The notes under the pieces were generated by a model. That model ran no database searches and was not told the origin of the DNA. It saw nothing but the letters and a program-made list of their open reading frames with translations. From positions 1-41,465 of the forward strand of contig JAZNXQ010000256.1 in NCBI GenBank assembly GCA_045593945.1: a stretch of 41,465 bases of DNA. Reading direction: 5' to 3'. Positions 27,430 through 39,873 of this stretch are shown piece after piece. Position 1 is the stretch's first letter. Each line of letters starts with the position of its first letter. The stretch comes from Lachnospiraceae bacterium (GTDB lineage Bacteria > Bacillota > Clostridia > Lachnospirales > Lachnospiraceae). Made by a program: the position numbers and the translations under genes.

Positions 27430-28623
27430 ATGTCCGGTAGAATTAAAAGATGTGTCGCAAGACTTCTTATGGCTATGATGTGTGTTTCTTGCGCACTTCC
27501 TGTATATGCAGCAACAACCAAGGATAAAATTAATAACAAAAAGGACCAGATTGCCAATCTTGAATCGGAGCGTAAGGCACTTGAAGCCAAGATTGCTCAG
27601 CTTAAAAAGGACCAGAAGAATATAATGGCATATATAGAGCTTTTGGATGTTGAACTTAACGGTATATCCGATAAGCTTATCGGGCTTGAAGATGAGAAGG
27701 TAGTTCTCGAAGGAGATATTGCCACGACGGAAGAGAATCTTGCAAGCGCAGAGGATACAGAGGCTAATCAGTATGCATCCATGAAGCTTCGTATTAAGTA
27801 TATGTATGAAAATGGTAACGAGAATTTCCTTGACTTGCTTTTAAGTTCTGATAATATGGAAGATTTCCTGAATAAAGCGGAATATGTTGAGAAGATTGCG
27901 GAGTATGACCGTAATATGCTTGATTTGTATGCCAAGACGAGAGAAGACATTGCAGCTTATAAGGAACAGCTTCTTGATGAAAAGACAGAGCTGGAGCTTC
28001 TTATTGAGCTTACGGAAGCAGAGTATTCCAATATGGAGTTGCTGATTGCTTCGAAAGAAGCGGAACTGAATAAGTACGATGCCAATATTGCTGATAATGA
28101 AGCACTACAGGAAGAACTTGATGCCGAGTGGGACGATATGAACGATGACCTCAAGGCTTTAGAGGAGCAACTCAAAAAAGAGGAAGAAGAAGCTAAGAGG
28201 AAAAAGGTAATATATGACGGAGGGCAGTTTATATGGCCGCTCAAGAATAATTTTAAGGTTACCTCAAAATACGGATACAGAACACATCCCGTAACTGGAA
28301 AGAAATATTCTTTCCATAATGGAATGGATATAGGAGCTTCTTCAGGTACGCCTATTTTGTCTGCATATAAAGGTGTAGTGGCTACAGTTGCTTACACCTC
28401 GCTTGCAGGTAATTATATTATGATTAATCACGGTAGCGGTTTGTATACGGTATATATGCATTGTTCAAAGATTATTGCGAAGCAGGGACAGACTGTTAAA
28501 CAGGGGGATACTATCGCACTTGTTGGTTCTACAGGCAGGTCAACGGCACCGCATTTGCATTTTAGTGTAAGACTTAACGGAGAATATGTAAATCCCGGTC
28601 CGTATATAGGTTATAATAAGTAA
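27430..28623 (+). CDS. Coiled-coil M23 (LytM) peptidoglycan endopeptidase, EnvC/PcsB-like FtsEX partner candidate
   Basis: Signal peptide or anchor, about 230 aa of heptad-rich coiled coil, then an M23 domain with intact HNGMD and HLHF metal ligands. Confidence 0.85.
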   Translation: MSGRIKRCVARLLMAMMCVSCALPVYAATTKDKINNKKDQIANLESERKALEAKIAQLKKDQKNIMAYIELLDVELNGISDKLIGLEDEKVVLEGDIATTEENLASAEDTEANQYASMKLRIKYMYENGNENFLDLLLSSDNMEDFLNKAEYVEKIAEYDRNMLDLYAKTREDIAAYKEQLLDEKTELELLIELTEAEYSNMELLIASKEAELNKYDANIADNEALQEELDAEWDDMNDDLKALEEQLKKEEEEAKRKKVIYDGGQFIWPLKNNFKVTSKYGYRTHPVTGKKYSFHNGMDIGASSGTPILSAYKGVVATVAYTSLAGNYIMINHGSGLYTVYMHCSKIIAKQGQTVKQGDTIALVGSTGRSTAPHLHFSVRLNGEYVNPGPYIGYNK

Positions 28624-28637
28624 TAAAGGAGACAGCA

Positions 28638-29918
28638 ATGGAAGAGAAAAAGGGTTTTGGCAAAGGCCTTTTGATAGGCATTGTCGGAGGAGCCTTAGGT
28701 ATGTTTATTATGGCTGTGGCAGTTATAATAATAAGCATGAATAGTATTGGTAAGAGTATAGGGGACGGAACTCTTTTTATAGAAGGTGCAGAAGGCCCGA
28801 ATGGTGGCGTGATGTATGAGCTTACCGAGACTGAGGATTTTGTAATTTCCAAAATCGGGTATATCATGGCTATGATAGACAGCGAGTTCTATTTTGAATA
28901 TGATAAGGAAAAGGCGTTGGACGGAATATATTACGGAGTACTTGATTCTTTGGGAGATGTCTATTCAACGTATTACAGTAAAGAAGAGTTTGATGACTTG
29001 ATGGAAACAACGCAGGGTGTATATTACGGAATCGGCGTCAAAGTTTCACAGAGTTATGCTACAGGAATTATTACCGTGGCTAAGGTATTTGAAGGAGCAC
29101 CGGCATTTGAGGCGGGAATGCTTCCGGGCGATATTCTTGTGGCAGTTAATGATGAAGATATAAGCGGTATGGATTTGAATATTGTTGTCACGATGATTAA
29201 GAGTGAAGAGGAAGGTTCTACTGTTAAAATTACCGTTCAAAGAGATGGTAAACTTGTTGATATGGATGTAGAGCGCCGTAAGGTAGAATACCCGGCTGTT
29301 GAGTATGAGATGCTTGACAATAATATAGGTTATTTACAACTTGTGGAGTTTGATACGGTATCCGTGAAACAGTTTGAAGCAGCCCTTAAGGATTTGAACT
29401 CACAGGGAATGGAAGGAATAGTATTCGACCTTCGTGATAACCCGGGAGGAACTCTTGATTCGGTTGTGGGAATACTTGATATGATTTTGCCGGAGTGTAC
29501 GATTATTTACACAGAAGACAAGGATGGTAAAGTTGGTGAAAAACATGTGTCTGATGCAGAAACTATTTTAAATGTGCCGGCGGTAGTTCTTGTTAACGGC
29601 AACAGTGCAAGTGCGGCAGAGGTTTTTGCAGGGGATGTACAGGATATGGGTGTTGCAACTCTTGTTGGAACTACGACATTTGGTAAAGGTATTGTTCAGC
29701 AGGTTTATCCCATTGGAGACGGAACAGCGGTTAAGCTTACTCAGTCTAGTTACTTTACAAGTGCGGGACGTAATATTCATGGGGACGGAATCGAACCTGA
29801 TGTCTATGTTGAACTTGATGAGGAGCTTCTTGGTAAGGTTGTTATCGAAAAGGAAGAAGATAACCAGCTTCAGAAGGCTTTGGAAGTTCTTGGAGAGAAG
29901 ATTGAAGCAGCACAGTAG
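28638..29918 (+). CDS. S41 C-terminal processing protease (Ctp) with PDZ domain
   Basis: N-terminal TM anchor, PDZ (GAPAFEAGMLPGDILVAVND), the S41 core RDNPGG, and NGNSASAAEVFAG...TFGKG (Ser/Lys dyad context). Confidence 0.88.
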   Translation: MEEKKGFGKGLLIGIVGGALGMFIMAVAVIIISMNSIGKSIGDGTLFIEGAEGPNGGVMYELTETEDFVISKIGYIMAMIDSEFYFEYDKEKALDGIYYGVLDSLGDVYSTYYSKEEFDDLMETTQGVYYGIGVKVSQSYATGIITVAKVFEGAPAFEAGMLPGDILVAVNDEDISGMDLNIVVTMIKSEEEGSTVKITVQRDGKLVDMDVERRKVEYPAVEYEMLDNNIGYLQLVEFDTVSVKQFEAALKDLNSQGMEGIVFDLRDNPGGTLDSVVGILDMILPECTIIYTEDKDGKVGEKHVSDAETILNVPAVVLVNGNSASAAEVFAGDVQDMGVATLVGTTTFGKGIVQQVYPIGDGTAVKLTQSSYFTSAGRNIHGDGIEPDVYVELDEELLGKVVIEKEEDNQLQKALEVLGEKIEAAQ

Positions 29919-29950
29919 TATAATTACACCGATATACGGAGGATTATGGT

Positions 29951-31345
29951 GTGAAAAAGTTAAGATTCTATTTTGCATTATTTGCAGGAAAAATAATATA
30001 TCTTACAGAGAAGGCGTTGCACAAAAATGCAACGTTTTTTCCGGGTAGTATGGCAGTTAAGCTATGTCCCGATATTTTAAAATATTTTGATAAGCCGAAG
30101 CAGATAATCTGCATAACAGGTACTAACGGCAAGACAACCGTTACCAATATGCTTATAAGCTTTTACGAGAAAAAGGGTTACAGTATCGTGCATAATAGTT
30201 ATGGCTCCAATGTAGCGGGCGGGATTGTAACTTCTTTTTTGAAAGATTCTACTTTTACAGGCAAGTGCAAAAAAGATATAGCGATTCTTGAAGTGGATGA
30301 GAAGAGTAGCAGACTTGTGTTCCCTTATATGGAGCCGGATTGGCTCATTTGTACCAATCTTTTCAGAGATTCCATTAAGCGTAATGCTCATACGGAGTAT
30401 ATCGCGGGGATTTTGGACAAATACATTCCCAAGAAGACAAAACTTGTTGTTAATGCTGATGATTTAATCAGCAGCAGACTTGCAGAGGGTAATGAGCGCT
30501 TGTATTTCGGAATAGAGAAGCAGGAGAGCGAGTCGGGTAAGAACGACAGTCTCATAAGAGATATCAGCATTTGCCCGGAATGTGATACAAAGCTTGAGTT
30601 CGATTTTGTCAGATATCATCATATCGGACAGGCACATTGTCCTAAGTGCGGTTTTGCATCCGCTAAAAGCGATTATACAGTCACAGAAATCAAATACGAT
30701 GAAAATGTTGTTGCCATATCAGAAAAGGGCAGAATCGAGCGATATGAGCTTCTGTCGGGCAATATAGTTAATATATATAACCAGGTTGCCTGTGTGGCAT
30801 TACTTAAAGAGCTTGGTTTCAGCTCGGATGATATTAAGACATATCTTACCAAGGATAGTATTGTAGCATCGCGTTTTTCTGTCGTAGAGGCAGGATGTGT
30901 AAGAATTATGACACAGCTTTCTAAGGGAAAGAATTCCATTGCCTGTTCAAGGGCGCTTGATTTTATTAATCATTTCAATTCAAAGGCCAAGGCAGTTTTT
31001 CTTATGGTTGATGATTTGTATGAGGAAAAAGAAGGTTCCGAGAATACCTGTTGGTTGTATGATGCAGATTTCGAGTATCTTGCGCAGGATGAGGTTAAAC
31101 GTGTAGTTGTTGCAGGTGCGAGACATCTTGACCATAAGCTGAGACTTTTGATGGCGGGTGTACCGGAGGACAGAATCGTATGTGTGCTTGAGGAAAAGGA
31201 CGCGGTTGCGCCGCTTGTAGAAGCAGCAAAAGAACTCGGCGTAGATTCTATGTTTATATTACATGAAGTATTCGGATACCAAAGAGCTAATCAGGTAAGA
31301 GAATGCGTTAAGGAAAGGTTGGTGTCAGAGAATGCTTCGAATTGA
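29951..31345 (+). CDS. murT: Mur-ligase-family MurT (lipid II isoglutaminyl synthase ligase subunit homolog)
   Basis: P-loop ITGTNGKTT, NLFRD, a four-Cys ribbon CPECDTKLEFDFVRYHHIGQAHCPKCGF and a C-terminal WLYDADF (DUF1727-like). GTG start. Overlaps the next gene by 14 nt. Confidence 0.8.
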   Translation: MKKLRFYFALFAGKIIYLTEKALHKNATFFPGSMAVKLCPDILKYFDKPKQIICITGTNGKTTVTNMLISFYEKKGYSIVHNSYGSNVAGGIVTSFLKDSTFTGKCKKDIAILEVDEKSSRLVFPYMEPDWLICTNLFRDSIKRNAHTEYIAGILDKYIPKKTKLVVNADDLISSRLAEGNERLYFGIEKQESESGKNDSLIRDISICPECDTKLEFDFVRYHHIGQAHCPKCGFASAKSDYTVTEIKYDENVVAISEKGRIERYELLSGNIVNIYNQVACVALLKELGFSSDDIKTYLTKDSIVASRFSVVEAGCVRIMTQLSKGKNSIACSRALDFINHFNSKAKAVFLMVDDLYEEKEGSENTCWLYDADFEYLAQDEVKRVVVAGARHLDHKLRLLMAGVPEDRIVCVLEEKDAVAPLVEAAKELGVDSMFILHEVFGYQRANQVRECVKERLVSENASN

Positions 31346-32039
31346 AGTACTTTTTCCGGAGGTTTGTAACTTATACGGAGATATGGGCAATATCCAGTAT
31401 TTAAAATACTGTTATCCTGATGCCGAGTTTATTGAGACGGCACTTACCGAGACACCGGCATTTGCTACGTCCAAAGTGGATATGATATATCTTGGTTCAA
31501 TGACTGAAAGGCTTCAGGAAAAGGTTGTTGCCAAACTTAGCGAATATAAGGCCGAGTTTTCGGCATGTATAGATGACGGAACGGTTATATTGTTTACCGG
31601 CAATGCATATGAGCTTATGGGGGCGCATATAGAGGATGACGGCCGTAAAATACCTTGTCTTGGCTTCTTTGATTATTATGCCAAGCGAGATATGATGAAT
31701 CGTCATTTTAGCATAATCCTTGCTGAATTTGAGGGTATGGAGCTCGTTGGTTTTAAGGATCAGTTTACCATGTCCTATAATAATTCTGATGACACAGCTT
31801 TTATGAAAATTGTAAAAGGAGAGGGTTGGCATGACGGTGCCGCATTTGAAGGTGTGCGCAAAAATAACTTTTTTGGAACATACCTCCTCGGACCGTTTCT
31901 TATAATGAATCCGGGCTTTACCAAATATTTGATGAAGTTATTGGGAGACAATGAGCCGCAACTTGCTTTTGATGAAGCTATTACCGCGGCATATGAGAAA
32001 AGATTATATGAGTTTAAGACAAAATCAGTAATAAAATAA
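31332..32039 (+). CDS. gatD: GatD-like CobB/CobQ-type amidotransferase partner of MurT (apparently lacking catalytic Cys and His)
   Basis: N-terminal FPEVCNLYGDMGNIQYL and C-terminal GTYLLGPFLIMNP align to the GatD family. The nucleophile position reads TGNAYELMG rather than xCGGYQxxG. Confidence 0.75.
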   Translation: MLRIEVLFPEVCNLYGDMGNIQYLKYCYPDAEFIETALTETPAFATSKVDMIYLGSMTERLQEKVVAKLSEYKAEFSACIDDGTVILFTGNAYELMGAHIEDDGRKIPCLGFFDYYAKRDMMNRHFSIILAEFEGMELVGFKDQFTMSYNNSDDTAFMKIVKGEGWHDGAAFEGVRKNNFFGTYLLGPFLIMNPGFTKYLMKLLGDNEPQLAFDEAITAAYEKRLYEFKTKSVIK

Positions 32040-32041
32040 TG

Positions 32042-32072
32042 AAAGGCAGTTCATATCGAACTGCCTTTTGCT
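32042..32072. terminator. Bidirectional terminator between gatD and the bactofilin gene
   Basis: aaaggcagttc-atatc-gaactgcctttt perfect stem, with A and T flanks. Confidence 0.7.
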
Positions 32073-32083
32073 TTGCAAAAATA

Positions 32084-32461
32084 TTAATCTAAATATTCGC
32101 TGGAAGCTGACTGCGGAGAACGCATCGTACATGTTCCGTTGAGTATTGCGCCTTCATCTGCTATGAGGTTACCGCAAATAATACTTCCCTGAATGTTGCC
32201 GCTATGCGCAAGTTGGATGGTCTGCATGATGTCAAGGTTGCCTTCTACGATTCCGCAAACATATGCAAATTCAGCAGAAATATTACCTTTAACATAACCT
32301 GTTCCACCTATAACAATGCTTGAAGAACATTCAATGTCTCCAACAAATTTACCTGTAATTTTGATGGGTTCGGTGCTTTTTAAAAGTGCTACGGATAATT
32401 CGGTAGCATCACCGATAATTGTTCCGGGTTTGTCAAAATTGGGTTTCTTGATTTTTTTCAT
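32084..32461 (-). CDS. Bactofilin (polymer-forming cytoskeletal protein, DUF583)
   Basis: 125 aa of repetitive beta-helix pattern (ITGKFVGDIECSSSIVIGGTGYVKGNISAEFAYVCGIVEGNLDIMQTIQLAHSGNIQGSIICGNLIADEGAILNG). Confidence 0.85.
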   Translation of the reverse strand: MKKIKKPNFDKPGTIIGDATELSVALLKSTEPIKITGKFVGDIECSSSIVIGGTGYVKGNISAEFAYVCGIVEGNLDIMQTIQLAHSGNIQGSIICGNLIADEGAILNGTCTMRSPQSASSEYLD

Positions 32462-32478
32462 GTAATAATCCTCGTAAA

Positions 32479-33540
32479 TTAATCTAAATAATCAGCGGGG
32501 TCAACTTTCTCACCATTAACTAAGACTTCGTAGTGAAGATGTACGGCAGTACTTCTTCCTGTTCGTCCTGCAAGAGCAATGCAATCACCCTTGGAAACGG
32601 TCTCACCTTTTTTGAATAAAAGCTTCGTGCAATGTGCATATCGTGTAGAATATCCATAACCATGGTCGATTACGATGGTATAACCATAACCGGTTACGTA
32701 ACCGGAAGAAATAACTGTTCCGGAGGCTGTAGCATACAATTCCTGCTTGTACTTGGCAGCAAAATCAATTCCGTAGTGGAATTCTTTGCCTTTGCCGGTA
32801 ATGGGATTGGTTCTGTAGCCGTAAGGACAGGTTATTCTTGAGTCCTTAATAGGCCAGCCACTCGGTACAGATTCTATGTAAGGTACGTAAACATCAGTCA
32901 TCTCGGCTAAGGTGTTCATCGCCTGATAGTTCTCATCTAAAACAGTCTCTAATGAATTGAGCAATGATAAAATATCAGCATACTGTTTATCAAAGTCATC
33001 CAATGCCGACAAATAAGTGCTCGAGCTGCTTGATGAAGATAAAGGTGAAGATGAATTACCTACATCATAAGGGGTCTTACTTGCAGTAGTGTCTGAAGAG
33101 TAAATCTCGTCGGGAGCTTCGTTAAGCTTCTCGTAAATTGAATCACGTATTGCTTCAAGATTCTCAATCTTACTGAGTATCTCCTGAGTCTGACCCTCAA
33201 GTATATTAAGTTGTGCTTCTTTTTCTTCAATTGAACCGAGTAACTCATTAATGATAATATTCTTCTCAGACAATACGGCTTCAACAGAGGATTTCTCGGC
33301 TTCAACAAGCTTCTTCTGGTCCTGTACATATGAGATGTTCTGTTCCAAAGTATTAACGCGGTTCGTAAAGTTAGTATACACTGAACCAATGTAAAATCCG
33401 GCCACCAAAAGAAGTACCATAAATAATGGGAATATTACTTTGGGAATACGGAAATTTCTGCCTGAAGAAGAAGTTCTCGTAGTAACCATAAGTGATATGT
33501 AGCGGTCGGACTTAACGGAGTGTATCTTTGGCTTACGCAT
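32479..33540 (-). CDS. Membrane-anchored coiled-coil M23 (LytM) endopeptidase
   Basis: TM helix (VIFPLFMVLLLVAGFYIG), coiled coil, a Ser-rich linker, and an M23 domain with FHYGID and HLHYEV. The ATG at 33540 is preferred because a predicted promoter -10 (33606-33611) places the start site at or below the TTG at 33600. Confidence 0.8.
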   Translation of the reverse strand: MRKPKIHSVKSDRYISLMVTTRTSSSGRNFRIPKVIFPLFMVLLLVAGFYIGSVYTNFTNRVNTLEQNISYVQDQKKLVEAEKSSVEAVLSEKNIIINELLGSIEEKEAQLNILEGQTQEILSKIENLEAIRDSIYEKLNEAPDEIYSSDTTASKTPYDVGNSSSPLSSSSSSSTYLSALDDFDKQYADILSLLNSLETVLDENYQAMNTLAEMTDVYVPYIESVPSGWPIKDSRITCPYGYRTNPITGKGKEFHYGIDFAAKYKQELYATASGTVISSGYVTGYGYTIVIDHGYGYSTRYAHCTKLLFKKGETVSKGDCIALAGRTGRSTAVHLHYEVLVNGEKVDPADYLD

Positions 33541-33605
33541 TGAAACACACGCCTTTCCGTTTTCTAGTATTAATTTCCTATATCGTGATATAAGAGGCAA
33601 ACTCT

Positions 33606-33717: not shown

Positions 33718-35496
33718 TTATCCGTGTATTAAATCATTGATTTCATTCGTGCCTAAAAGCCTGCATTGCTTATTGCTTATGCTGTAAACTCTTGTACAAA
33801 TATTAAGGACTGTGGGCCTGTGGGTTGTAACGATGGTAGTTCTCGGATATTGGTCATCCATAATATTTTTGAGAACCTGTCGTTCGGTCATAATATCAAG
33901 TGCCGAGGTGGCCTCATCAAGAAGAAGAATTGGTGAGCGCCTGAGTAAAGCTCTTGCGATGGAAAGACGTTGTGCCTGACCTTCGGAAAAACCGCCGCCA
34001 CGTTCTTTGATTTCGGTATTGATGCCATCAGGAAGTTTTTCAACAAAATTCCAAGCACAGGCAATCTTTAATGCCTCTATGATTTCTTCATCAGAAGCAT
34101 CTTCTTTTACGTTACGCATGTTGTCAGCAATTGTTCCGGAAAACATAGTGTTGCCTTGCGGAACATATGCAAAAAGCTGACGGGTGGATGCTGTCAGATC
34201 CATGCAGGGTTTGCCGTTTTCAGGTGTACCGTCTCCTGCACATATGAAACCTGCTCCTTCTTTTGCGCGGATAATTGATAGAATAAGTCGTAACATGGTC
34301 GTTTTGCCTTCGCCTGACGGACCGACAAGCGCAATCACTTCATGCGGGTGGGCATCGAAGGTTGCATTTTCAAAAACCTCTGTACCTGTTGCGTATGTAT
34401 ATGCGGCATTGCGGATGCTAAGGCCGATACCGACATTTTTATTGTTCTCAAAGAATTGCGCTACGTCGTCTTTTTGCGAGTAGTCTTCTTTGGGGAGAGA
34501 GAGAATACCCATTAGACGTTTGGCGGCATTTGTGAGCATTATTGTATTGGGAATAAAACTAATTAAATTATCTACGGATGAACTGAGTGTAGCTGAGAGT
34601 GCCAAAAACATTGTCATGGCACCGTATGTAATATCACCGTTCCAAACCTTATAAATTCCCCAACCGTAAGAGGAATATGTTACAAGTAAAGAAACTAGAG
34701 TAAGCACAAAACTGTTTAAAATTGAAGCTCGTTGATATTTCATACGAACATCGCTGTATTGCTTTTGTAAAATACGAAGTCTGTTTGAATAAAGTGGAAT
34801 CATATCAAAAGCTTTTACGGTATGTATATTAGAGAATGTTTCCTGGTTAAAGGTCGACAATTTTGTCCCGAGGGTCATGCTTTGCATATTATCTTTACGC
34901 ATTTTCTTAAGAGAAGCTTTGGATGCATAGATGCTTAAGGGAATGCTTATAAGAGCAAATATAGCAAAGGAAGCATCGTTGTACAAAACCATAATGAGCG
35001 CTGAAAAAAAGCGAAACAGATAAATTATAAGATTGGGAAGCATATTAAGTATTCCTGATGAAATATAACTTGCATCTCCGTTCCATCTGACAAGCAAATC
35101 GCCTGAATGAAATCTTGATAAAGATTCCCAGTCGGTTATAAGTATCTCGTCAAAAATCTGAGCCTTAATGTTATTATCGATTTTTATACTTATTCTGGTG
35201 GAAATATAATTAGAAATCTGGGTTATCAAAGTGCTGCCCAGTGTCATTCCAATCATTGCACAAAAAGTTGAAATAAGTTTGCCGGTATTATGCCCTGTTA
35301 TAATATCTACAAGGTCTCTTGAGACTAGGCTTCCGAGCAAGGTTATTAGCGTGCTTGAAAGTCCTAGGAGTGTATAAATACCGATAAAAAGATAGTATTT
35401 CTTTGCGTATTTATAAATCCATACAAGTTGAGAATATATTTCCTTGAGGCGTCCTTGCTTAATTCGAGTGATATAATGTTTGAGTTTTGATAACAT
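33718..35496 (-). CDS. ABC exporter, fused permease + ATPase (type I exporter; no C39 peptidase domain)
   Basis: 592 aa. Six predicted TM helices are followed by an NBD with GPSGEGKTT, FSEGQAQRLSIARA and ILLLDEATSALD. RBS GGAGGA. Confidence 0.88.
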   Translation of the reverse strand: MLSKLKHYITRIKQGRLKEIYSQLVWIYKYAKKYYLFIGIYTLLGLSSTLITLLGSLVSRDLVDIITGHNTGKLISTFCAMIGMTLGSTLITQISNYISTRISIKIDNNIKAQIFDEILITDWESLSRFHSGDLLVRWNGDASYISSGILNMLPNLIIYLFRFFSALIMVLYNDASFAIFALISIPLSIYASKASLKKMRKDNMQSMTLGTKLSTFNQETFSNIHTVKAFDMIPLYSNRLRILQKQYSDVRMKYQRASILNSFVLTLVSLLVTYSSYGWGIYKVWNGDITYGAMTMFLALSATLSSSVDNLISFIPNTIMLTNAAKRLMGILSLPKEDYSQKDDVAQFFENNKNVGIGLSIRNAAYTYATGTEVFENATFDAHPHEVIALVGPSGEGKTTMLRLILSIIRAKEGAGFICAGDGTPENGKPCMDLTASTRQLFAYVPQGNTMFSGTIADNMRNVKEDASDEEIIEALKIACAWNFVEKLPDGINTEIKERGGGFSEGQAQRLSIARALLRRSPILLLDEATSALDIMTERQVLKNIMDDQYPRTTIVTTHRPTVLNICTRVYSISNKQCRLLGTNEINDLIHG

Positions 35497-35513: not shown

Positions 35514-35543
35514 AAAAATGCACCACTACCATAGTGGTGCATT
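35514..35543 (-). terminator. Intra-operon (attenuating) terminator between the 165-aa gene and the ABC exporter
   Basis: The minus strand reads aatgcaccactatggtagtggtgcattttt: a 10-11-bp stem, 4-nt loop and T5. The exporter RBS follows immediately. Confidence 0.65.
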
Positions 35544-35569: not shown

Positions 35570-36067
35570 TTAGCTACAAAAATAACATTCAAGTTCGCAA
35601 TAATATTTGGTTGCATTATCTGCACCGATTGCACCATGCAATGGATTGCCGGCTGCATCATATGTAGGTGTGGAAGTAACTATCTCAAAATTAAAACCAA
35701 TATTATCATTGGCATTAAAGTGATTATTACGGGTTAAAGAAAACAATCGGGAATTATAATTAGTAATAATACAACCGCTTGCATTTTTTACTTCTACAAT
35801 ATCGAAATTTGTTTTAATAAATATAACAAGTGATTCGCCACTATGATTGCCATTGTGTTCGGCAAAGACATGACATACGGAGTGTCCGCCGTTGTTATGT
35901 CCGGTCCAAGTAAATTTCCAATTTACCCAACATTTCTGATCTTCATAAGCGGGAGGTGTCTCCGGCTGACCGGGATTCGGTGAAGAACCACTTCCTGCAT
36001 AAATTGCTTCTTTTGTATCATTAATATCAAGATCTAATATTTCTGCATAAAATTTATTTTCGCTCAT
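35570..36067 (-). CDS. Hypothetical 165-aa Cys/His-rich protein with leader-peptide-like N-terminus (candidate substrate/precursor)
   Basis: The ATG at 36067 lies 8 nt after AGGAGAG; the track GTG at 36076 abuts that RBS. The N-terminus MSENKFYAEILDLDINDTKEAIYAGSG is acidic and is not a Sec signal. A Pro/Gly linker follows, then a His-rich beta-type domain and a C-terminal CELECYFCS. Confidence 0.6.
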   Translation of the reverse strand: MSENKFYAEILDLDINDTKEAIYAGSGSSPNPGQPETPPAYEDQKCWVNWKFTWTGHNNGGHSVCHVFAEHNGNHSGESLVIFIKTNFDIVEVKNASGCIITNYNSRLFSLTRNNHFNANDNIGFNFEIVTSTPTYDAAGNPLHGAIGADNATKYYCELECYFCS

Positions 36068-36099
36068 TACAAACACTCTCCTAGTCTAATTATATCTGC

Positions 36100-36128
36100 A
36101 TTATAAGATTTTGCCTGTTACCTGTCAA
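36100..36128 (-). promoter_or_regulatory. Consensus sigma-A promoter dedicated to the 165-aa gene
   Basis: Minus strand TTGACA (36123-36128), exactly 17 nt, TATAAT (36100-36105), in the 88-nt gap after the upstream gene. Confidence 0.65.
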
Positions 36129-36155: not shown

Positions 36156-37316
36156 TTAGCTTTTGTCTATGTATGAATCAATTACATTCCGTATATAAAA
36201 TACTGCGGTTTCGGTTGGAATTGCGTTAAAACGGCATACAAGTATATCGGGGTAAACTAAGTTTATAATATTAAAAATAGTTTCCTGCATATCATATGTC
36301 CATGAAGGAGAAATATTCCTGTGTAAAAGATAGAGAAGTTTCTGCTCATCTGTGAGAGATACAAATTCATTATCTTTTCCTTGCTGTAAAAGAATAATTC
36401 CGCCCAAAGGATAAGAAAATGTAGTGGATATTCCGGAAGTTCCGCACCATGGAATTCCATGGATCACAGGTGAGTTATCATTTATATCGATTAAGTTTAC
36501 GTCACCATTTAAGATAGGAATATTCAAAACAGAGTTCCATAGGTCAGTGTGGGTTGACTTGCCGACACCGGATGCTGCCGAAAACAGCCATGCATTATCT
36601 CTGTAAAGTATTGAAGCAGAATGTATGGCAAACATATTGTGAAGCCCGGCAAAGTATAGGAAAAGAATTTGCATAACTGAGAAGCTTTCCTGTTTACACT
36701 CTTCAGTCTGAGAATGTTTGCAAAGAATGGTGGCTTCTTTGCCGTCATGGCTTAAGTGTGCTTCCGTAATATATTTGAAAGCTGGAAATAATAAGCAATA
36801 TCCGGAGGTATTCTCAAGAATACAAAGCTCTTTGTTTTGTAAAATTAATTTGCCATTCTTGTTATATGGCTGCGTTTTGGTTTGTATGGAAATGCTTTGT
36901 GTAAGTTCAGATTCAAAAGAATCATCTGTTGTCTCAAATGCAAATAGTTTGTCGGAAAAACATTCTCTGTCGCCATATAATTTAATAAACAAACCAGCTA
37001 TCTTGAGGACTGCGCAAGGCGAGTCGTGCATGTCATAATCTTCGGGTAATAAAAGTTTTTGGTGGCGGAGTGCCGCAACAAATTTATGAATTGAATCTGC
37101 AATGTTGTCATAATCTTCTTTGGGACAATTATGTTCAGTTATATAAAGCGTTACCAATTCCTCTTCTGAAGAAACTGTTTCTAGTGCGTTCCACAAGAAC
37201 AGGCTGGTGTCATTCAAACGCAAATCATGCCCAAAGTCTGCTAATGCCTGCCCAAATGCAATCAGATAAGGCGTTCCGGATATAAATTTAAGTTGATAAT
37301 GGGGATTACGCTTCAT
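36156..37316 (-). CDS. PqqD-like (RRE) domain fused to an HPr-kinase-C-like P-loop domain
   Basis: Residues about 1-92 fit the PqqD pattern (LRLNDTSLFLWNALETVSSEEELVTLYITEH...IHKFVAALRHQKLLL). Residues about 225-330 carry HSASILYRDNAWLFSAASGVGKSTHTDLW...NGDVNLID, resembling HprK-C / RiPP-associated HprK-related kinases. The start is ATG 37316 or GTG 37325. Confidence 0.65.
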   Translation of the reverse strand: MKRNPHYQLKFISGTPYLIAFGQALADFGHDLRLNDTSLFLWNALETVSSEEELVTLYITEHNCPKEDYDNIADSIHKFVAALRHQKLLLPEDYDMHDSPCAVLKIAGLFIKLYGDRECFSDKLFAFETTDDSFESELTQSISIQTKTQPYNKNGKLILQNKELCILENTSGYCLLFPAFKYITEAHLSHDGKEATILCKHSQTEECKQESFSVMQILFLYFAGLHNMFAIHSASILYRDNAWLFSAASGVGKSTHTDLWNSVLNIPILNGDVNLIDINDNSPVIHGIPWCGTSGISTTFSYPLGGIILLQQGKDNEFVSLTDEQKLLYLLHRNISPSWTYDMQETIFNIINLVYPDILVCRFNAIPTETAVFYIRNVIDSYIDKS

Positions 37317-37361
37317 TGGTATCACCGCTTTCTGCTTTATTGAATGACAATTCTTAATTAT

Positions 37362-37390
37362 ATTATACTATTTTTTTATAATTAAGGCAA
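37362..37390 (-). promoter_or_regulatory. Putative promoter of the PqqD-kinase cassette
   Basis: Minus strand TTGCCT (37385-37390), 17-nt spacer, TATAAT (37362-37367). Confidence 0.5.
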
Positions 37391-37524: not shown

Positions 37525-39873
37525 ATGAAAATTACAGGGACTATACCTTACGAATATAAGAACGCACCGATTCCGGGTGGGGGCTATGTGACGGGACTCA
37601 TTTATCATAGGAAGCAGCCGGGAATTCTTTATGCAAGAACCGATATAGGCGGTACCTACAGATTTAATAATGAAGAGCAGAAATGGGAGAGTCTGATTAA
37701 CCATGTAACGATGGAAGATTTGTCGGAAACGTATCCTATTGCATTGGCACTTGATGATAAGTGTCCTGAGAGACTTTACATAGCGAGTGGTATTACTGAG
37801 AACGGTTATGGCGTGTTAAGTATATCCGAAGATTTTGGAGAAACTTTTACATATAAGAGGATTCCTGCAACTGTTCACGGGAATATGAGCGGTCGCGGAA
37901 CGGGCTACAGACTTGTGGTTGATAATAACGACAGTAATACACTATATTTCGCAAGCCAGAAGAATGGTCTTTTAAAAAGTGCAGACCGTGGAGACACATG
38001 GACAAAACTTGATATAGACGAGGATTATATGACTTTTGTATGGGTGTCGGAAGATTCTAAGACGATTGTTGCGGGAACGGCAGGTTATATAACAAGGATT
38101 GATGACGGTTTGAGAGGGCATAGCCTGTATGTTTCCTATGACGGCGGTGAGAGTTTTGAAAAGCTTATGCAGCCTGAAAATGTAATTATTGAAGACAGTA
38201 AAATGAACGGCCTTGTGGCTTCGCGCTATGACTATGACGGAAAATATCTGTACGTGACAATGCAGTCCACGGGACGTTGGAATTACATTGTTGATATGGG
38301 TTACAGTTGTGATACGGGAGATACTCTTGGCGGCAAGGTTTTGCGTTATAGATTTAAGGACGGTATAATCACGGGATATGACGATATTACTCCGGATGGA
38401 GAAGGAAGACTTACCACAAAGTATCTTAATTACGGTTTCGGAGGAGTCTGCTCCTGTCCTGCTAAACCGGGACTTCTTGTGTGTTCTACACTGTGTAAAG
38501 AAAAAGAATCGCCGGAGTGTATATATATTTCTGAGGATTACGGTAACAGTTGGCGAATCAGTTTAAGAGGTTTGGATGAAGGAGACATATACTTCAGAAC
38601 CTCTTACATGCAGCCAAAGTATAATGCAGGAGAGAGTCTTCTTCACTGGCTTAGTGATGTTAAGATAGATCCATTTAATCCAAACAAGCTTTGGTTTAAT
38701 TCAGGAACGGGAGTTTTTACGACTGATGAGCTTCTCTCGGAGCATCCGAAGTACCACGATTATTGTGACGGTATAGAGGAAACAGTGCATCTTAATGTTT
38801 ATGCTCCGCTTGCAGGAGAGGTAAAGCTTGTGGACATTGTTGGTGACTTGGGAGGTTTTGCGTTTAGGGATTTGACAAAACCTTGCGACAATTCATTTGA
38901 CGATAAGGACGGTAACCGTTACATAACCTGTATCAATGCGGATATGTCGGATGCAGACAGTAACCTTGCGATTGTTACGGCAAGAGGTAACTGGAAAGGG
39001 AAGACAAAGGGCGGTCTGATTAGAACCAGGGATAATTTTAAGACCTTTGAAAGAATTCCAATGCCTTTTGGAATAAATGATAAAATTGATACAGCACTTA
39101 AATTCATTGAGCACCCCAATGTTAATCCGGGCTGGGTTGCCATGTCACCTGACGGGCAGAATATTGTCTGGTCGATTGCGGATATGATAAGACTTCCGGC
39201 GGATATGGTTATTGTAAGCGGGGATGCAGGTAAGAGCTTTAAACAGGCTGAGATTTTTAACATTTGCGAAAGTAAGGTTACGACCGGATTTTTTAAAGTA
39301 TTTTCAGACCGGATTGATAATGATGTCTTTTATGGTTTTGACGGAGAAGGACATATATATGTAAGCTTGGACGGCGGCTTTTCGTATTATGAGAAGCAGG
39401 TGTGCGCAAGGAACCGTGCAGGTGTGTCAATCGATTTTCCGAAGAGTGATTTCGGGTATATTGATACGGCCAATAAAACAGAAGTCAGAGGCGTATCGGG
39501 TGTAAAAGGCTGCTTTTATATGGCACTCGGTAGGGGCGGTTTGTGGAAGCTTGAGTTTAATAAGGAACAGGATAAGTTCGATGCGATAAGGCTTTCAGAG
39601 GATAAGGAAGAGTGTTATTGCATGGGAATAGGTCTCGGCGCAAAAGACGGTAATTATATAAGTGCTACAAAAGCAATTTATTTTTGCGGAATTGTTGACG
39701 GTAAGTATGGTTTTTACAGAACTTTTGACGAGGGTGAGACCTGCGAAAGAATCAACACTGATAAGCAGATGTTCGGTCAGATTATAAGTATTGATGCTGA
39801 TAAGAGAGCGTTCGGACGGTTTTTTCTGGCGTCCGGCTCAAGAGGTGTGTTATTCGGGTGTGAGAGTGAGTGA
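37525..39873 (+). CDS. GH74-family xyloglucanase / oligoxyloglucan hydrolase-like protein (no signal peptide)
   Basis: N-terminal YEYKNAPIPGGGYVTGLIYHRKQPGILYARTDIGGTYRF is GH74-typical. Multiple Asp-box/BNR repeats are present (SEDFGETF, SADRGDTW, SYDGGESF, SEDYGNSW, SGDAGKSF, SLDGGFSY). Confidence 0.8.
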   Translation: MKITGTIPYEYKNAPIPGGGYVTGLIYHRKQPGILYARTDIGGTYRFNNEEQKWESLINHVTMEDLSETYPIALALDDKCPERLYIASGITENGYGVLSISEDFGETFTYKRIPATVHGNMSGRGTGYRLVVDNNDSNTLYFASQKNGLLKSADRGDTWTKLDIDEDYMTFVWVSEDSKTIVAGTAGYITRIDDGLRGHSLYVSYDGGESFEKLMQPENVIIEDSKMNGLVASRYDYDGKYLYVTMQSTGRWNYIVDMGYSCDTGDTLGGKVLRYRFKDGIITGYDDITPDGEGRLTTKYLNYGFGGVCSCPAKPGLLVCSTLCKEKESPECIYISEDYGNSWRISLRGLDEGDIYFRTSYMQPKYNAGESLLHWLSDVKIDPFNPNKLWFNSGTGVFTTDELLSEHPKYHDYCDGIEETVHLNVYAPLAGEVKLVDIVGDLGGFAFRDLTKPCDNSFDDKDGNRYITCINADMSDADSNLAIVTARGNWKGKTKGGLIRTRDNFKTFERIPMPFGINDKIDTALKFIEHPNVNPGWVAMSPDGQNIVWSIADMIRLPADMVIVSGDAGKSFKQAEIFNICESKVTTGFFKVFSDRIDNDVFYGFDGEGHIYVSLDGGFSYYEKQVCARNRAGVSIDFPKSDFGYIDTANKTEVRGVSGVKGCFYMALGRGGLWKLEFNKEQDKFDAIRLSEDKEECYCMGIGLGAKDGNYISATKAIYFCGIVDGKYGFYRTFDEGETCERINTDKQMFGQIISIDADKRAFGRFFLASGSRGVLFGCESE

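Follow-up and report, generated by a model that had tools for sequence, protein, structure and literature searches.

A leader-bearing 165-residue protein as probable substrate of a three-gene RRE-kinase and ABC exporter cassette in Lachnospiraceae

The gene in question encodes a protein of 165 residues (35570-36067, stop codon included) and is located on contig JAZNXQ010000256.1 of the Lachnospiraceae bacterium assembly GCA_045593945.1, whose positions 1 to 41,465 were analysed as a whole and are referred to as the window. Its product is probably the precursor, i.e., the substrate, of a compact three-gene cassette which resembles those for peptides made by the ribosome and modified after translation (RiPPs) and is related to the systems for linear polyphosphorylated peptides (LPPs). 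The cassette, which like its expression signals resides on the minus strand, comprises in this order (i) a gene for a RiPP recognition element (RRE) fused to an HprK-like kinase (36156-37325), (ii) the substrate gene and (iii) a gene for an MsbA-like ATP-binding cassette (ABC) exporter (33718-35496). Besides the window, 14 loci with mutually unrelated flanks possess this same-strand trio (an arrangement termed Type A), and the joint occurrence of the three genes makes it likely that the protein serves both neighbours, enzyme and exporter, as substrate, as the original prediction had assumed from the letters of the window. Within Type A loci members of the substrate family are flanked by an RRE-kinase of 386-391 residues and by a 592-residue exporter. 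Hosts are Lachnospiraceae and Acetatifactor metagenome-assembled genomes from animal guts and rumen as well as one cultured strain, Lachnospiraceae bacterium YSD2013, which renders the hypothesis directly testable.

The substrate, its leader and its partner proteins

A search of 5.8 billion proteins revealed 33 homologues of the substrate (159-180 residues, 50-98% identity), all of them unnamed or annotated as 'hypothetical', while a profile run against 1.84 billion representatives of clusters placed the family in 65 clusters at the 50% level. As the family alignment moreover possesses 30 invariant columns, the gene is more than a chance reading frame and, judged from its conservation, is real and under selection. 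The ATG was preferred as start codon over an alternative GTG located 9 nucleotides upstream of it, which would yield a protein of 168 residues, because the GTG overlaps the ribosome-binding site read from the sequence (GGAGAG, 36076-36081, 8 nucleotides upstream of the ATG) and because the equivalent methionine is the first residue in 33 of 33 homologues. Apart from a chance match to Omp_AT (E 0.08), the protein matched nothing in Pfam, NCBIfam, PHROGs or PADLOC, and a sequence search of the PDB with all 165 residues gave nothing meaningful. Since the family is without a Pfam or NCBIfam model and its members go by the annotation 'hypothetical', such substrates probably escape genome mining for RiPPs where the tools start from short peptides or from tailoring enzymes already known.

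Three parts can be distinguished in the protein, namely a leader (residues 1-27, MSENKFYAEILDLDINDTKEAIYAGSG, 35987-36067), a Pro/Gly/Thr-rich linker of variable length and sequence (residues 28-45, SSPNPGQPETPPAYEDQK, 35933-35986) and a folded domain (residues 46-165, 35573-35932). A layout of this kind had been anticipated, and it was recovered in the AlphaFold2 model (34-sequence alignment, mean predicted local distance difference test score (pLDDT) 79.6), where residues 1-35 including the leader are disordered with pLDDT values below 50, the linker likewise being of low pLDDT and preceding a confidently modelled beta-sandwich. The N-terminus is acidic and carries no hydrophobic segment of the Sec or Tat type, in line with the earlier statement that no such signal is present. 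Also the features of composition described at that time are all found, i.e., the 27-residue N-terminus, the Pro/Gly linker, five His within a 19-residue stretch (HNNGGHSVCHVFAEHNGNH), six Cys (positions 46, 65, 100, 157, 161 and 164), three of which are part of the terminal CELECYFCS, and the terminal Ser.

Within the leader it is the C-terminal half which is conserved: the segment D17..E20-x-x-Y23-A-G-S26-G27 is invariant or nearly so, with E20, S26 and G27 being strictly invariant, and the column of residue 21 holds 90% Gly (Ala in the window copy). From 60 divergent members the 34 N-terminal residues were aligned, and with a subsequent motif scan of 92 members this identified the superfamily leader consensus as M-K-x-[F/Y]-x-x-P-x-[LIV]-x(4-5)-[D/E]-x-x-E-G-[V/I]-Y-A-x-S-G. 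The leader is common to no fewer than 92 divergent proteins, which are 130-180 residues long. The motif [F/Y]xxPx[LIVMFA], variants included, is present in 85 of these 92 (74 of them having Pro, 7 having Glu), and in 83 of the 85 motif-bearing members a Ser-Gly pair follows 19-21 residues downstream of the aromatic residue, a Glu being placed six residues upstream of that Ser in 77. The cores behind the shared leader are highly divergent across the superfamily. By its pattern of conservation the shared leader behaves as a RiPP leader, and its motif is to be assigned to the RRE-binding type known from lasso peptides and LPPs rather than to the lanthipeptide box. The window copy carries the version FYAEIL (residues 6-11, 36035-36052), in which Glu takes the place of Pro. 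This Pro to Glu exchange at E9 (36041-36043) is shared within the window's subclade, i.e., by the window protein, P0001-P0005 and P0013.

The domain following the linker was modelled as a sandwich of eight strands (block-mean pLDDT 83-95 over residues 41-165), the last of which forms the C-terminus of the protein. Its first hairpin is conserved as W54-x-G56-H57-N-N-G60-x-H62-S63-V-C65 (the window reads ...N-N-G-G-H62), and a pattern of the form H-x(3-6)-H-x(0-1)-S recurs in 78 of the 92 superfamily members. In the alignment of the homologues H57, H62 and H71 are invariant and H75 nearly so; of the Cys, C65 and C157 are invariant, C46 and C164 nearly invariant. The notion of a sandwich as in carbohydrate-binding modules (CBMs) could be upheld in part. 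A sandwich was indeed modelled, and Foldseek against the PDB returned as top matches CBM2 modules, namely the cellulose-binding domain (CBD) of C. fimi Cex (6qfs, 1exg), 3ndy_E and the chitin-binding domain (ChBD) of Chi18aC (2rtt); however, these matches are weak (E 8e-4 to 2e-2, identity 10-16%, template modelling score (TM) of about 0.58 when normalised to the target and of 0.39-0.41 when normalised to the query), and the Pfam scan of the protein gave no CBM match, CBM_2 included. With the CBM2 domains of C. fimi Cex and Streptomyces Chi18aC the substrate domain shares a beta-sandwich of approximately 100-120 residues, Cys residues near both ends and Trp residues on the first strand; it differs from them in its distinctive HNxGxHS hairpin and in never being joined to a glycoside hydrolase. 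A phage or spore structural protein is not supported, as among viral structures Foldseek pointed to no convincing family, its matches being scattered over uncharacterised proteins and domains associated with chitinases. Giant multi-repeat proteins of 514-3887 residues (P0179, P0190, P0206, P0208, P0210 and P0212), which match positions 45-105 of the substrate profile in 3-7 repeats and for which Pfam identified BppU_IgG (P0179, P0190, P0212) or Big_13 (P0210), were set aside as informative homologues, since the resemblance is probably one of generic Ig-like beta-sandwich fold or composition.

The gene preceding that of the substrate comprises an open reading frame of 389 residues, with M4 (37316) as the probable start, which would yield 386 residues. 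At the N-terminus of the encoded protein a PqqD-like winged-helix domain, i.e., an RRE, was identified (residues 8-95, 37041-37304) by Pfam (PqqD, E 1e-4, 23.0 bits, the cutoff being 23.4), by a profile search which matched the lasso B1 protein TbiB1, LppB (9x8z) and PbaB1 (9x90) with E 0.009-0.035, and by hhalign, which aligned the RRE profile with LppB at a probability of 90% (E 1.7e-6). The remainder of the protein possesses a P-loop (S252-G-V-G-K-S-T258, 36552-36572) with H235 and N273-G-D275 nearby, and across 50 diverse homologues H235, the P-loop S-G-x-G-K-(S/T) and N273-G-D275 are invariant. Foldseek of the AlphaFold2 model (mean pLDDT 92.4) against the PDB returned 58 matches with E <= 0.001, and all 50 that were listed are ATP-dependent phosphoenolpyruvate carboxykinase (PEPCK) or HprK/P (best E 2e-5), the target-normalised TM of 1jb1 versus the model being 0.53. 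Hence the HprK-like kinase that had been expected next to the substrate was found, at the level of fold, together with an RRE. HprK/P is a Ser kinase acting on a protein substrate and has a Walker A motif of the SGxGKS type with a His before and an Asp after it; the layout of His, Walker A and Asp in the fusion protein we take to be the same. Compared with HprK/P acting on Ser46 of HPr, the PEPCK-like P-loop fold is shared (Foldseek E 2e-5 to 1e-4), but the context here is that of a secretion cassette and not of carbon catabolite control, and the protein possesses the extra N-terminal RRE, which implies that the substrate would be captured through its leader. Homologues of the fusion protein carry precomputed Pfam matches to PF27840 (ScmC) and PqqD, and their family (1364 clusters at 90% identity) is far larger than that of the substrate (33). 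A literature search for ScmC and PqqD returned nothing relevant, and one for SynChlorMet returned no hit.

The exporter (592 residues) consists of ABC_membrane, starting at residue 39, and ABC_tran, and is without a match to the C39 peptidase domain (Peptidase_C39). Its best NCBIfam match was MsbA_rel (E 2e-70), below the cutoff of that model.

Relation to linear polyphosphorylated peptides

LPPs were defined only in 2026 and from Bacilli (Popov et al., Nat Commun 2026, PMC13381572), the feature through which they were discovered being an archaeal-type (SipW-like) signal peptidase I. The clusters, whose genes were named LppA, LppK, LppB, LppS, LppD and LppN, encode the precursor LppA, a kinase of the HprK-like type (LppK), an RRE as a discrete protein (LppB), a SipW-like leader peptidase (LppS), a pump resembling MsbA and a nucleotidyltransferase (NTP-transferase, LppN). 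LppA proteins are 35-200 residues long and possess the leader YxxPxVLxHQxIxFETxxS followed by a variable C-terminal part. LppK attaches up to four phosphates to Ser3 of the core, which is located 18 residues after the leader Tyr, and LppS cuts after T-1, a step for which LppB is required (PMC13381572). Beyond this report, the literature search returned no mention of LPPs or of HprK-like RiPP kinases of such type.

The window cassette shares with these clusters (i) a leader with an aromatic-x-x-Pro-x-hydrophobic motif and a conserved Ser approximately 18-21 residues downstream of it, (ii) an HprK-like kinase, here at the level of fold only, (iii) a PqqD-type RRE, (iv) an MsbA-like ABC exporter and (v) the lack of a lasso cyclase. 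Unlike in LPP clusters, the RRE is fused to the kinase (386-391 residues) and not discrete, the core is a predicted folded beta-sandwich of 120 residues and not a Gly/Asn/Pro-rich peptide, the hosts are gut and rumen Lachnospiraceae (Clostridia) and not Bacilli, and the cassette is not placed inside capsule loci. Only two Lachnospiraceae peptidases are part of the published LPP dataset, where they form minor network clusters with a discrete RRE each and no kinase, and the motifs EGVYA and HNSGSHS of the substrate family were not found in its supplementary sequence tables (PMC13381572).

The gap between the two is narrowed by relatives of the window cassette. In Type B loci (L007-L010) a divergent peptidase of 148-170 residues, an RRE-kinase fusion, a convergent exporter and a leader-bearing protein of 140 residues were found, together with a PF14907 NTP-transferase in L008-L010 (the L008 gene being confirmed by Pfam) and, in L007, with no more than a PF14907 gene that is cut off by the end of the locus. 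The Type B substrate is without linker, its leader ...EGVYAASG leading directly into D/E-C-Y/W-T, and the 'YVRPMAL' of one such protein is nearly identical to the 'YARPMVL' of LppA. Type C loci (L019, L020) encode a discrete RRE of 93 residues, a kinase of 303 residues, a substrate of 155 residues, which in L019 carries the motif HNSGSHSE, an exporter and a peptidase of 163 residues. The peptidase of these related cassettes best matches models of archaeal-type/SipW signal peptidase I (E 2e-8, below threshold), and alignment of LppS with the Type B peptidase (28% identity, E 4e-12) superimposed the catalytic Ser, His and Asp. An LppS homologue (Types B and C) and a PF14907 gene (Type B, L008-L010) are thus carried by relatives of the window cassette, and by gene content and sequence similarity Types B and C can be regarded as a bridge to the published LPP clusters. 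Beyond the peptidase, on its far side, L007 (1887-3437) and L009 (376-1932) encode a transglutaminase-core protein of approximately 517 residues; on the same side both loci possess genes with methyl-accepting chemotaxis protein (MCP) signal domains. In L009 a FliB_C-domain protein is encoded as well.

Several findings weigh against an LPP-like substrate and kinase pair. For the kinase domain no sequence-level HprK match was obtained in Pfam, NCBIfam or the PDB, which sets it apart from HprK/P, and a profile made from the kinase domain only recovered from the PDB sequences the generic P-loop of EngC and not HprK; for this reason the assignment as kinase rests on fold and motifs. With a hidden Markov model built from LppS and five homologues no peptidase of the LppS type was found at E <= 10, either in the window or within 8 kb of the cassette in the remaining Type A loci, and an NTP-transferase was not found in the window or in Type A loci either (phmmer, E <= 1e-5, LppN-like query from L008). 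Of the features of LPP clusters, three are lacking here, namely the discrete RRE, LppS and LppN. The M23 peptidase encoded nearby (32479-33600) was dismissed as a candidate for the leader peptidase, since other loci do not have it beside the cassette. The leader itself departs from LppA in that the consensus FETxxS stands against EGVYAxSG, and in the window copy Glu stands for the family Pro and Phe for the Tyr of LppA; binding of LppA to the RRE is weakened by the exchanges P-13A and Y-16A (PMC13381572). As to the phosphorylation target, a second conserved Ser, S63 of the HxxxxHS hairpin, is a possible alternative to that of the leader. Finally, we know of no direct precedent for a protein of approximately 13 kDa passing through a half-transporter of the MsbA/McjD type.

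With these points considered, the cassette is most probably LPP-like at the recognition and the kinase step, by analogy to the characterised system. Initially, the disordered leader would dock with its motif (FYAEIL in the window copy) onto the N-terminal RRE domain of the adjacent 386-389-residue protein, the HprK/PEPCK-fold domain of which would then phosphorylate a nearby Ser, possibly repeatedly. Best candidate is Ser26 of E-x-x-Y-A-G-S-G (codon 35990-35992), which is located at the junction of leader and linker, in a position that matches Ser3 of LppA. Ser26 is favoured as phosphoacceptor because it is invariant at the end of the leader and because of the analogy to Ser3 of the LppA core (PMC13381572), and it appears to be a better candidate than the C-terminal Ser. 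The exporter would subsequently carry the product out of the cell independently of Sec, probably before the C-terminal sandwich folds. As Type A is without LppS and LppN, the leader may be retained or may be cut off by a protease that is not linked to the cassette, and the product would then be phosphorylated without further decoration.

Taken further, RiPP logic may here be applied to a whole protein, with a fused RRE-kinase tagging a Ser upstream of a 13-kDa sandwich with phosphate or polyphosphate, with Sec-independent, MsbA-like export and without a leader peptidase. This would constitute a so far undescribed module for phospho-tagging and secretion of a protein, of wide distribution among the Lachnospiraceae of gut and rumen (more than 1300 RRE-kinase clusters at 90% identity), whose product might be a phosphate-anchored surface or matrix protein; such an extended scheme is put forward tentatively, as its truth in full is rather doubtful. 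The same logic of leader, RRE, HprK-like kinase and ABC exporter would now be seen in anaerobic Clostridia of gut and rumen in a stripped-down form of three genes, with the kinase physically fused to the recognition domain and with a conserved, foldable domain as 'core' in place of a short peptide. This provides a simpler system for asking (i) which role leader-directed Ser polyphosphorylation has, (ii) whether the leader needs to be removed and (iii) whether protein-sized cargo can pass an MsbA/McjD-type exporter.

Alternative explanations

Among the alternatives, leader-dependent secretion without any covalent modification fares best, though it is unlikely. Here, the RRE/P-loop protein would serve as ATP-dependent chaperone or gatekeeper which hands the unfolded protein over to the exporter, the three genes together forming a dedicated Sec-independent device. 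This idea would account for a minimal cassette with neither peptidase nor NTP-transferase, for the leader being always present on the domain and for the strong dedicated promoter of the substrate gene. However, the catalytic His, P-loop Lys and Asp of the HprK type are invariant across the 50 diverse homologues mentioned above, homologous systems with the same parts phosphorylate their substrate, and an invariant Ser-Gly is found at the position of the LPP phosphosite.

A second and somewhat less probable proposal concerns the role of the product and is compatible with its being a kinase substrate: the His/Cys-rich sandwich would be an extracellular metal- or carbohydrate-binding protein, such as a metal scavenger or an adhesin for cell wall or glycan, to which kinase and pump are accessory. 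The invariant or nearly invariant His and Cys residues, the His-Ser pattern of the superfamily and the cellulose- and chitin-binding CBM2 domains as top fold matches of the model faintly suggest a binding of metal or glycan by the sandwich. Against it stand the low fold similarity (E of about 1e-3, with the query-normalised TM given above), the lack of a CBM match in Pfam and the finding that the surroundings of the cassette show no conserved genes for metal uptake or for the utilisation of glycans.

The original prediction had pointed to the last residue as the phosphorylated one, in the manner of paeninodin, with the CxxxCxxC-Ser tail as functional motif. In paeninodin and pseudomycoidin the precursor is modified at its C-terminal Ser by a kinase of the HprK superfamily; the protein encoded in the window likewise has Ser as last residue, next to a gene whose product adopts an HprK-like fold. 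Further features in common with these lasso systems are a leader-bearing precursor with a [Y/W]xxPxL motif, a PqqD-type RRE (B1), an ABC exporter as well as, among related cassettes, a PF14907 nucleotidyltransferase. Nevertheless, a phosphorylated Ser165 is very improbable, as neither the Ser nor the tail is conserved. Only 16 of 34 close sequences terminate in Ser, the others ending in G, R, N, C or T, and across the leader-bearing superfamily the terminal residue is essentially random, which renders a C-terminal phosphoacceptor implausible family-wide; the CxxxCxxC-Ser tail is confined to the window's own subclade, with C161 not being conserved. In the model the C-terminus moreover forms the last strand of the sandwich, and in LPPs, the closest characterised system, the phosphosite directly follows the leader. 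A lasso peptide as such was rejected, as neither a macrolactam cyclase (C, Asn-synthetase-like) nor a B2 cysteine peptidase (transglutaminase-like) was found in the cassette, the window flanks or the conserved loci. Compared with a lasso core, the core here is about six times longer and predicted to be a beta-sandwich.

Least probable of all is a lanthipeptide or double-glycine (class II) bacteriocin, whose transporter would cut after the GS/SG pair and whose core would be modified at Cys, Ser or Thr: the acidic leader ending in A-G-S-G, the Cys residues and the adjacent ABC exporter are as it would have them, but the exporter is without C39 domain, for which reason the mechanism of a peptidase-containing ABC transporter (PCAT) was rejected, no LanB, LanC, LanM or LanKC was found among the Pfam-scanned reading frames of the window or the genes listed in the conserved loci, the I-L-D-L-D or (D/N)-L-D box of the leader, resembling FNLD, on which the former comparison with lanthipeptide leaders was based is not conserved in homologues, the motif that is conserved being the lasso/LPP one ([F/Y]xxPx[LIV] and EGVYAxSG), and the core is a folded domain of 120 residues.

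Expression signals and neighbouring genes

Between the kinase and the substrate gene, upstream of the latter, a consensus sigma-70 promoter is located (TTGACA-17-TATAAT, 36100-36128, 12 of 12 matches), and in other Type A loci promoter-like sites with 9-11 of 12 matches were identified at the same place before the substrate gene. The kinase gene, too, is preceded by a promoter-like site, which is weaker (TTGCCT-17-TATAAT, 37362-37390, 10 of 12 matches). The stop codon of the substrate gene and the ribosome-binding site of the exporter are separated by a terminator-like hairpin (35517-35543) with a stem of 12 base pairs followed by TTTTCT, the minimum free energy of which is -20.8 kcal/mol (z-score -3.0). 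The core of this stem (GCACCACT/AGTGGTGC) keeps its sequence throughout the Type A loci, even where substrates and flanking proteins share only 36% identity; the conserved hairpin was located in L001 (8541-8560), L003 (8520-8540), L006 (8510-8529), L011 (7497-7517), L015 (8516-8536), L016 (8488-8508), L017 (1879-1899) and L018 (8462-8482), and the stem variant of L012 and L013 (GCATCACT) still pairs through G-U. From its sequence the hairpin is read as a leaky terminator or attenuator. Conservation of the stem sequence is unusual for a terminator and may point to a regulatory RNA or to a protein-binding element. Promoter and leaky terminator together are the classic layout for precursor overexpression in RiPP operons, and a dedicated promoter combined with a conserved leaky terminator would over-produce the substrate relative to enzyme and pump.

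Adjoining the cassette, a divergent gene on the plus strand (37525-39873) encodes a protein of 782 residues with BNR/Asp-box and Sortilin-Vps10 repeats, perhaps, from its domains, a beta-propeller glycosidase; at this place it is not conserved in other loci. Downstream of the cassette (27430-33600) the window holds cell-envelope genes, which are not kept with the cassette elsewhere and include those for two M23 peptidases (27430-28623 and, already mentioned, 32479-33600), an S41 C-terminal processing peptidase with PDZ domain, a bactofilin and a MurT-like ligase. The ligase gene is followed by an open reading frame of 235 residues (31332-32039), which from the order of the genes might be GatD.

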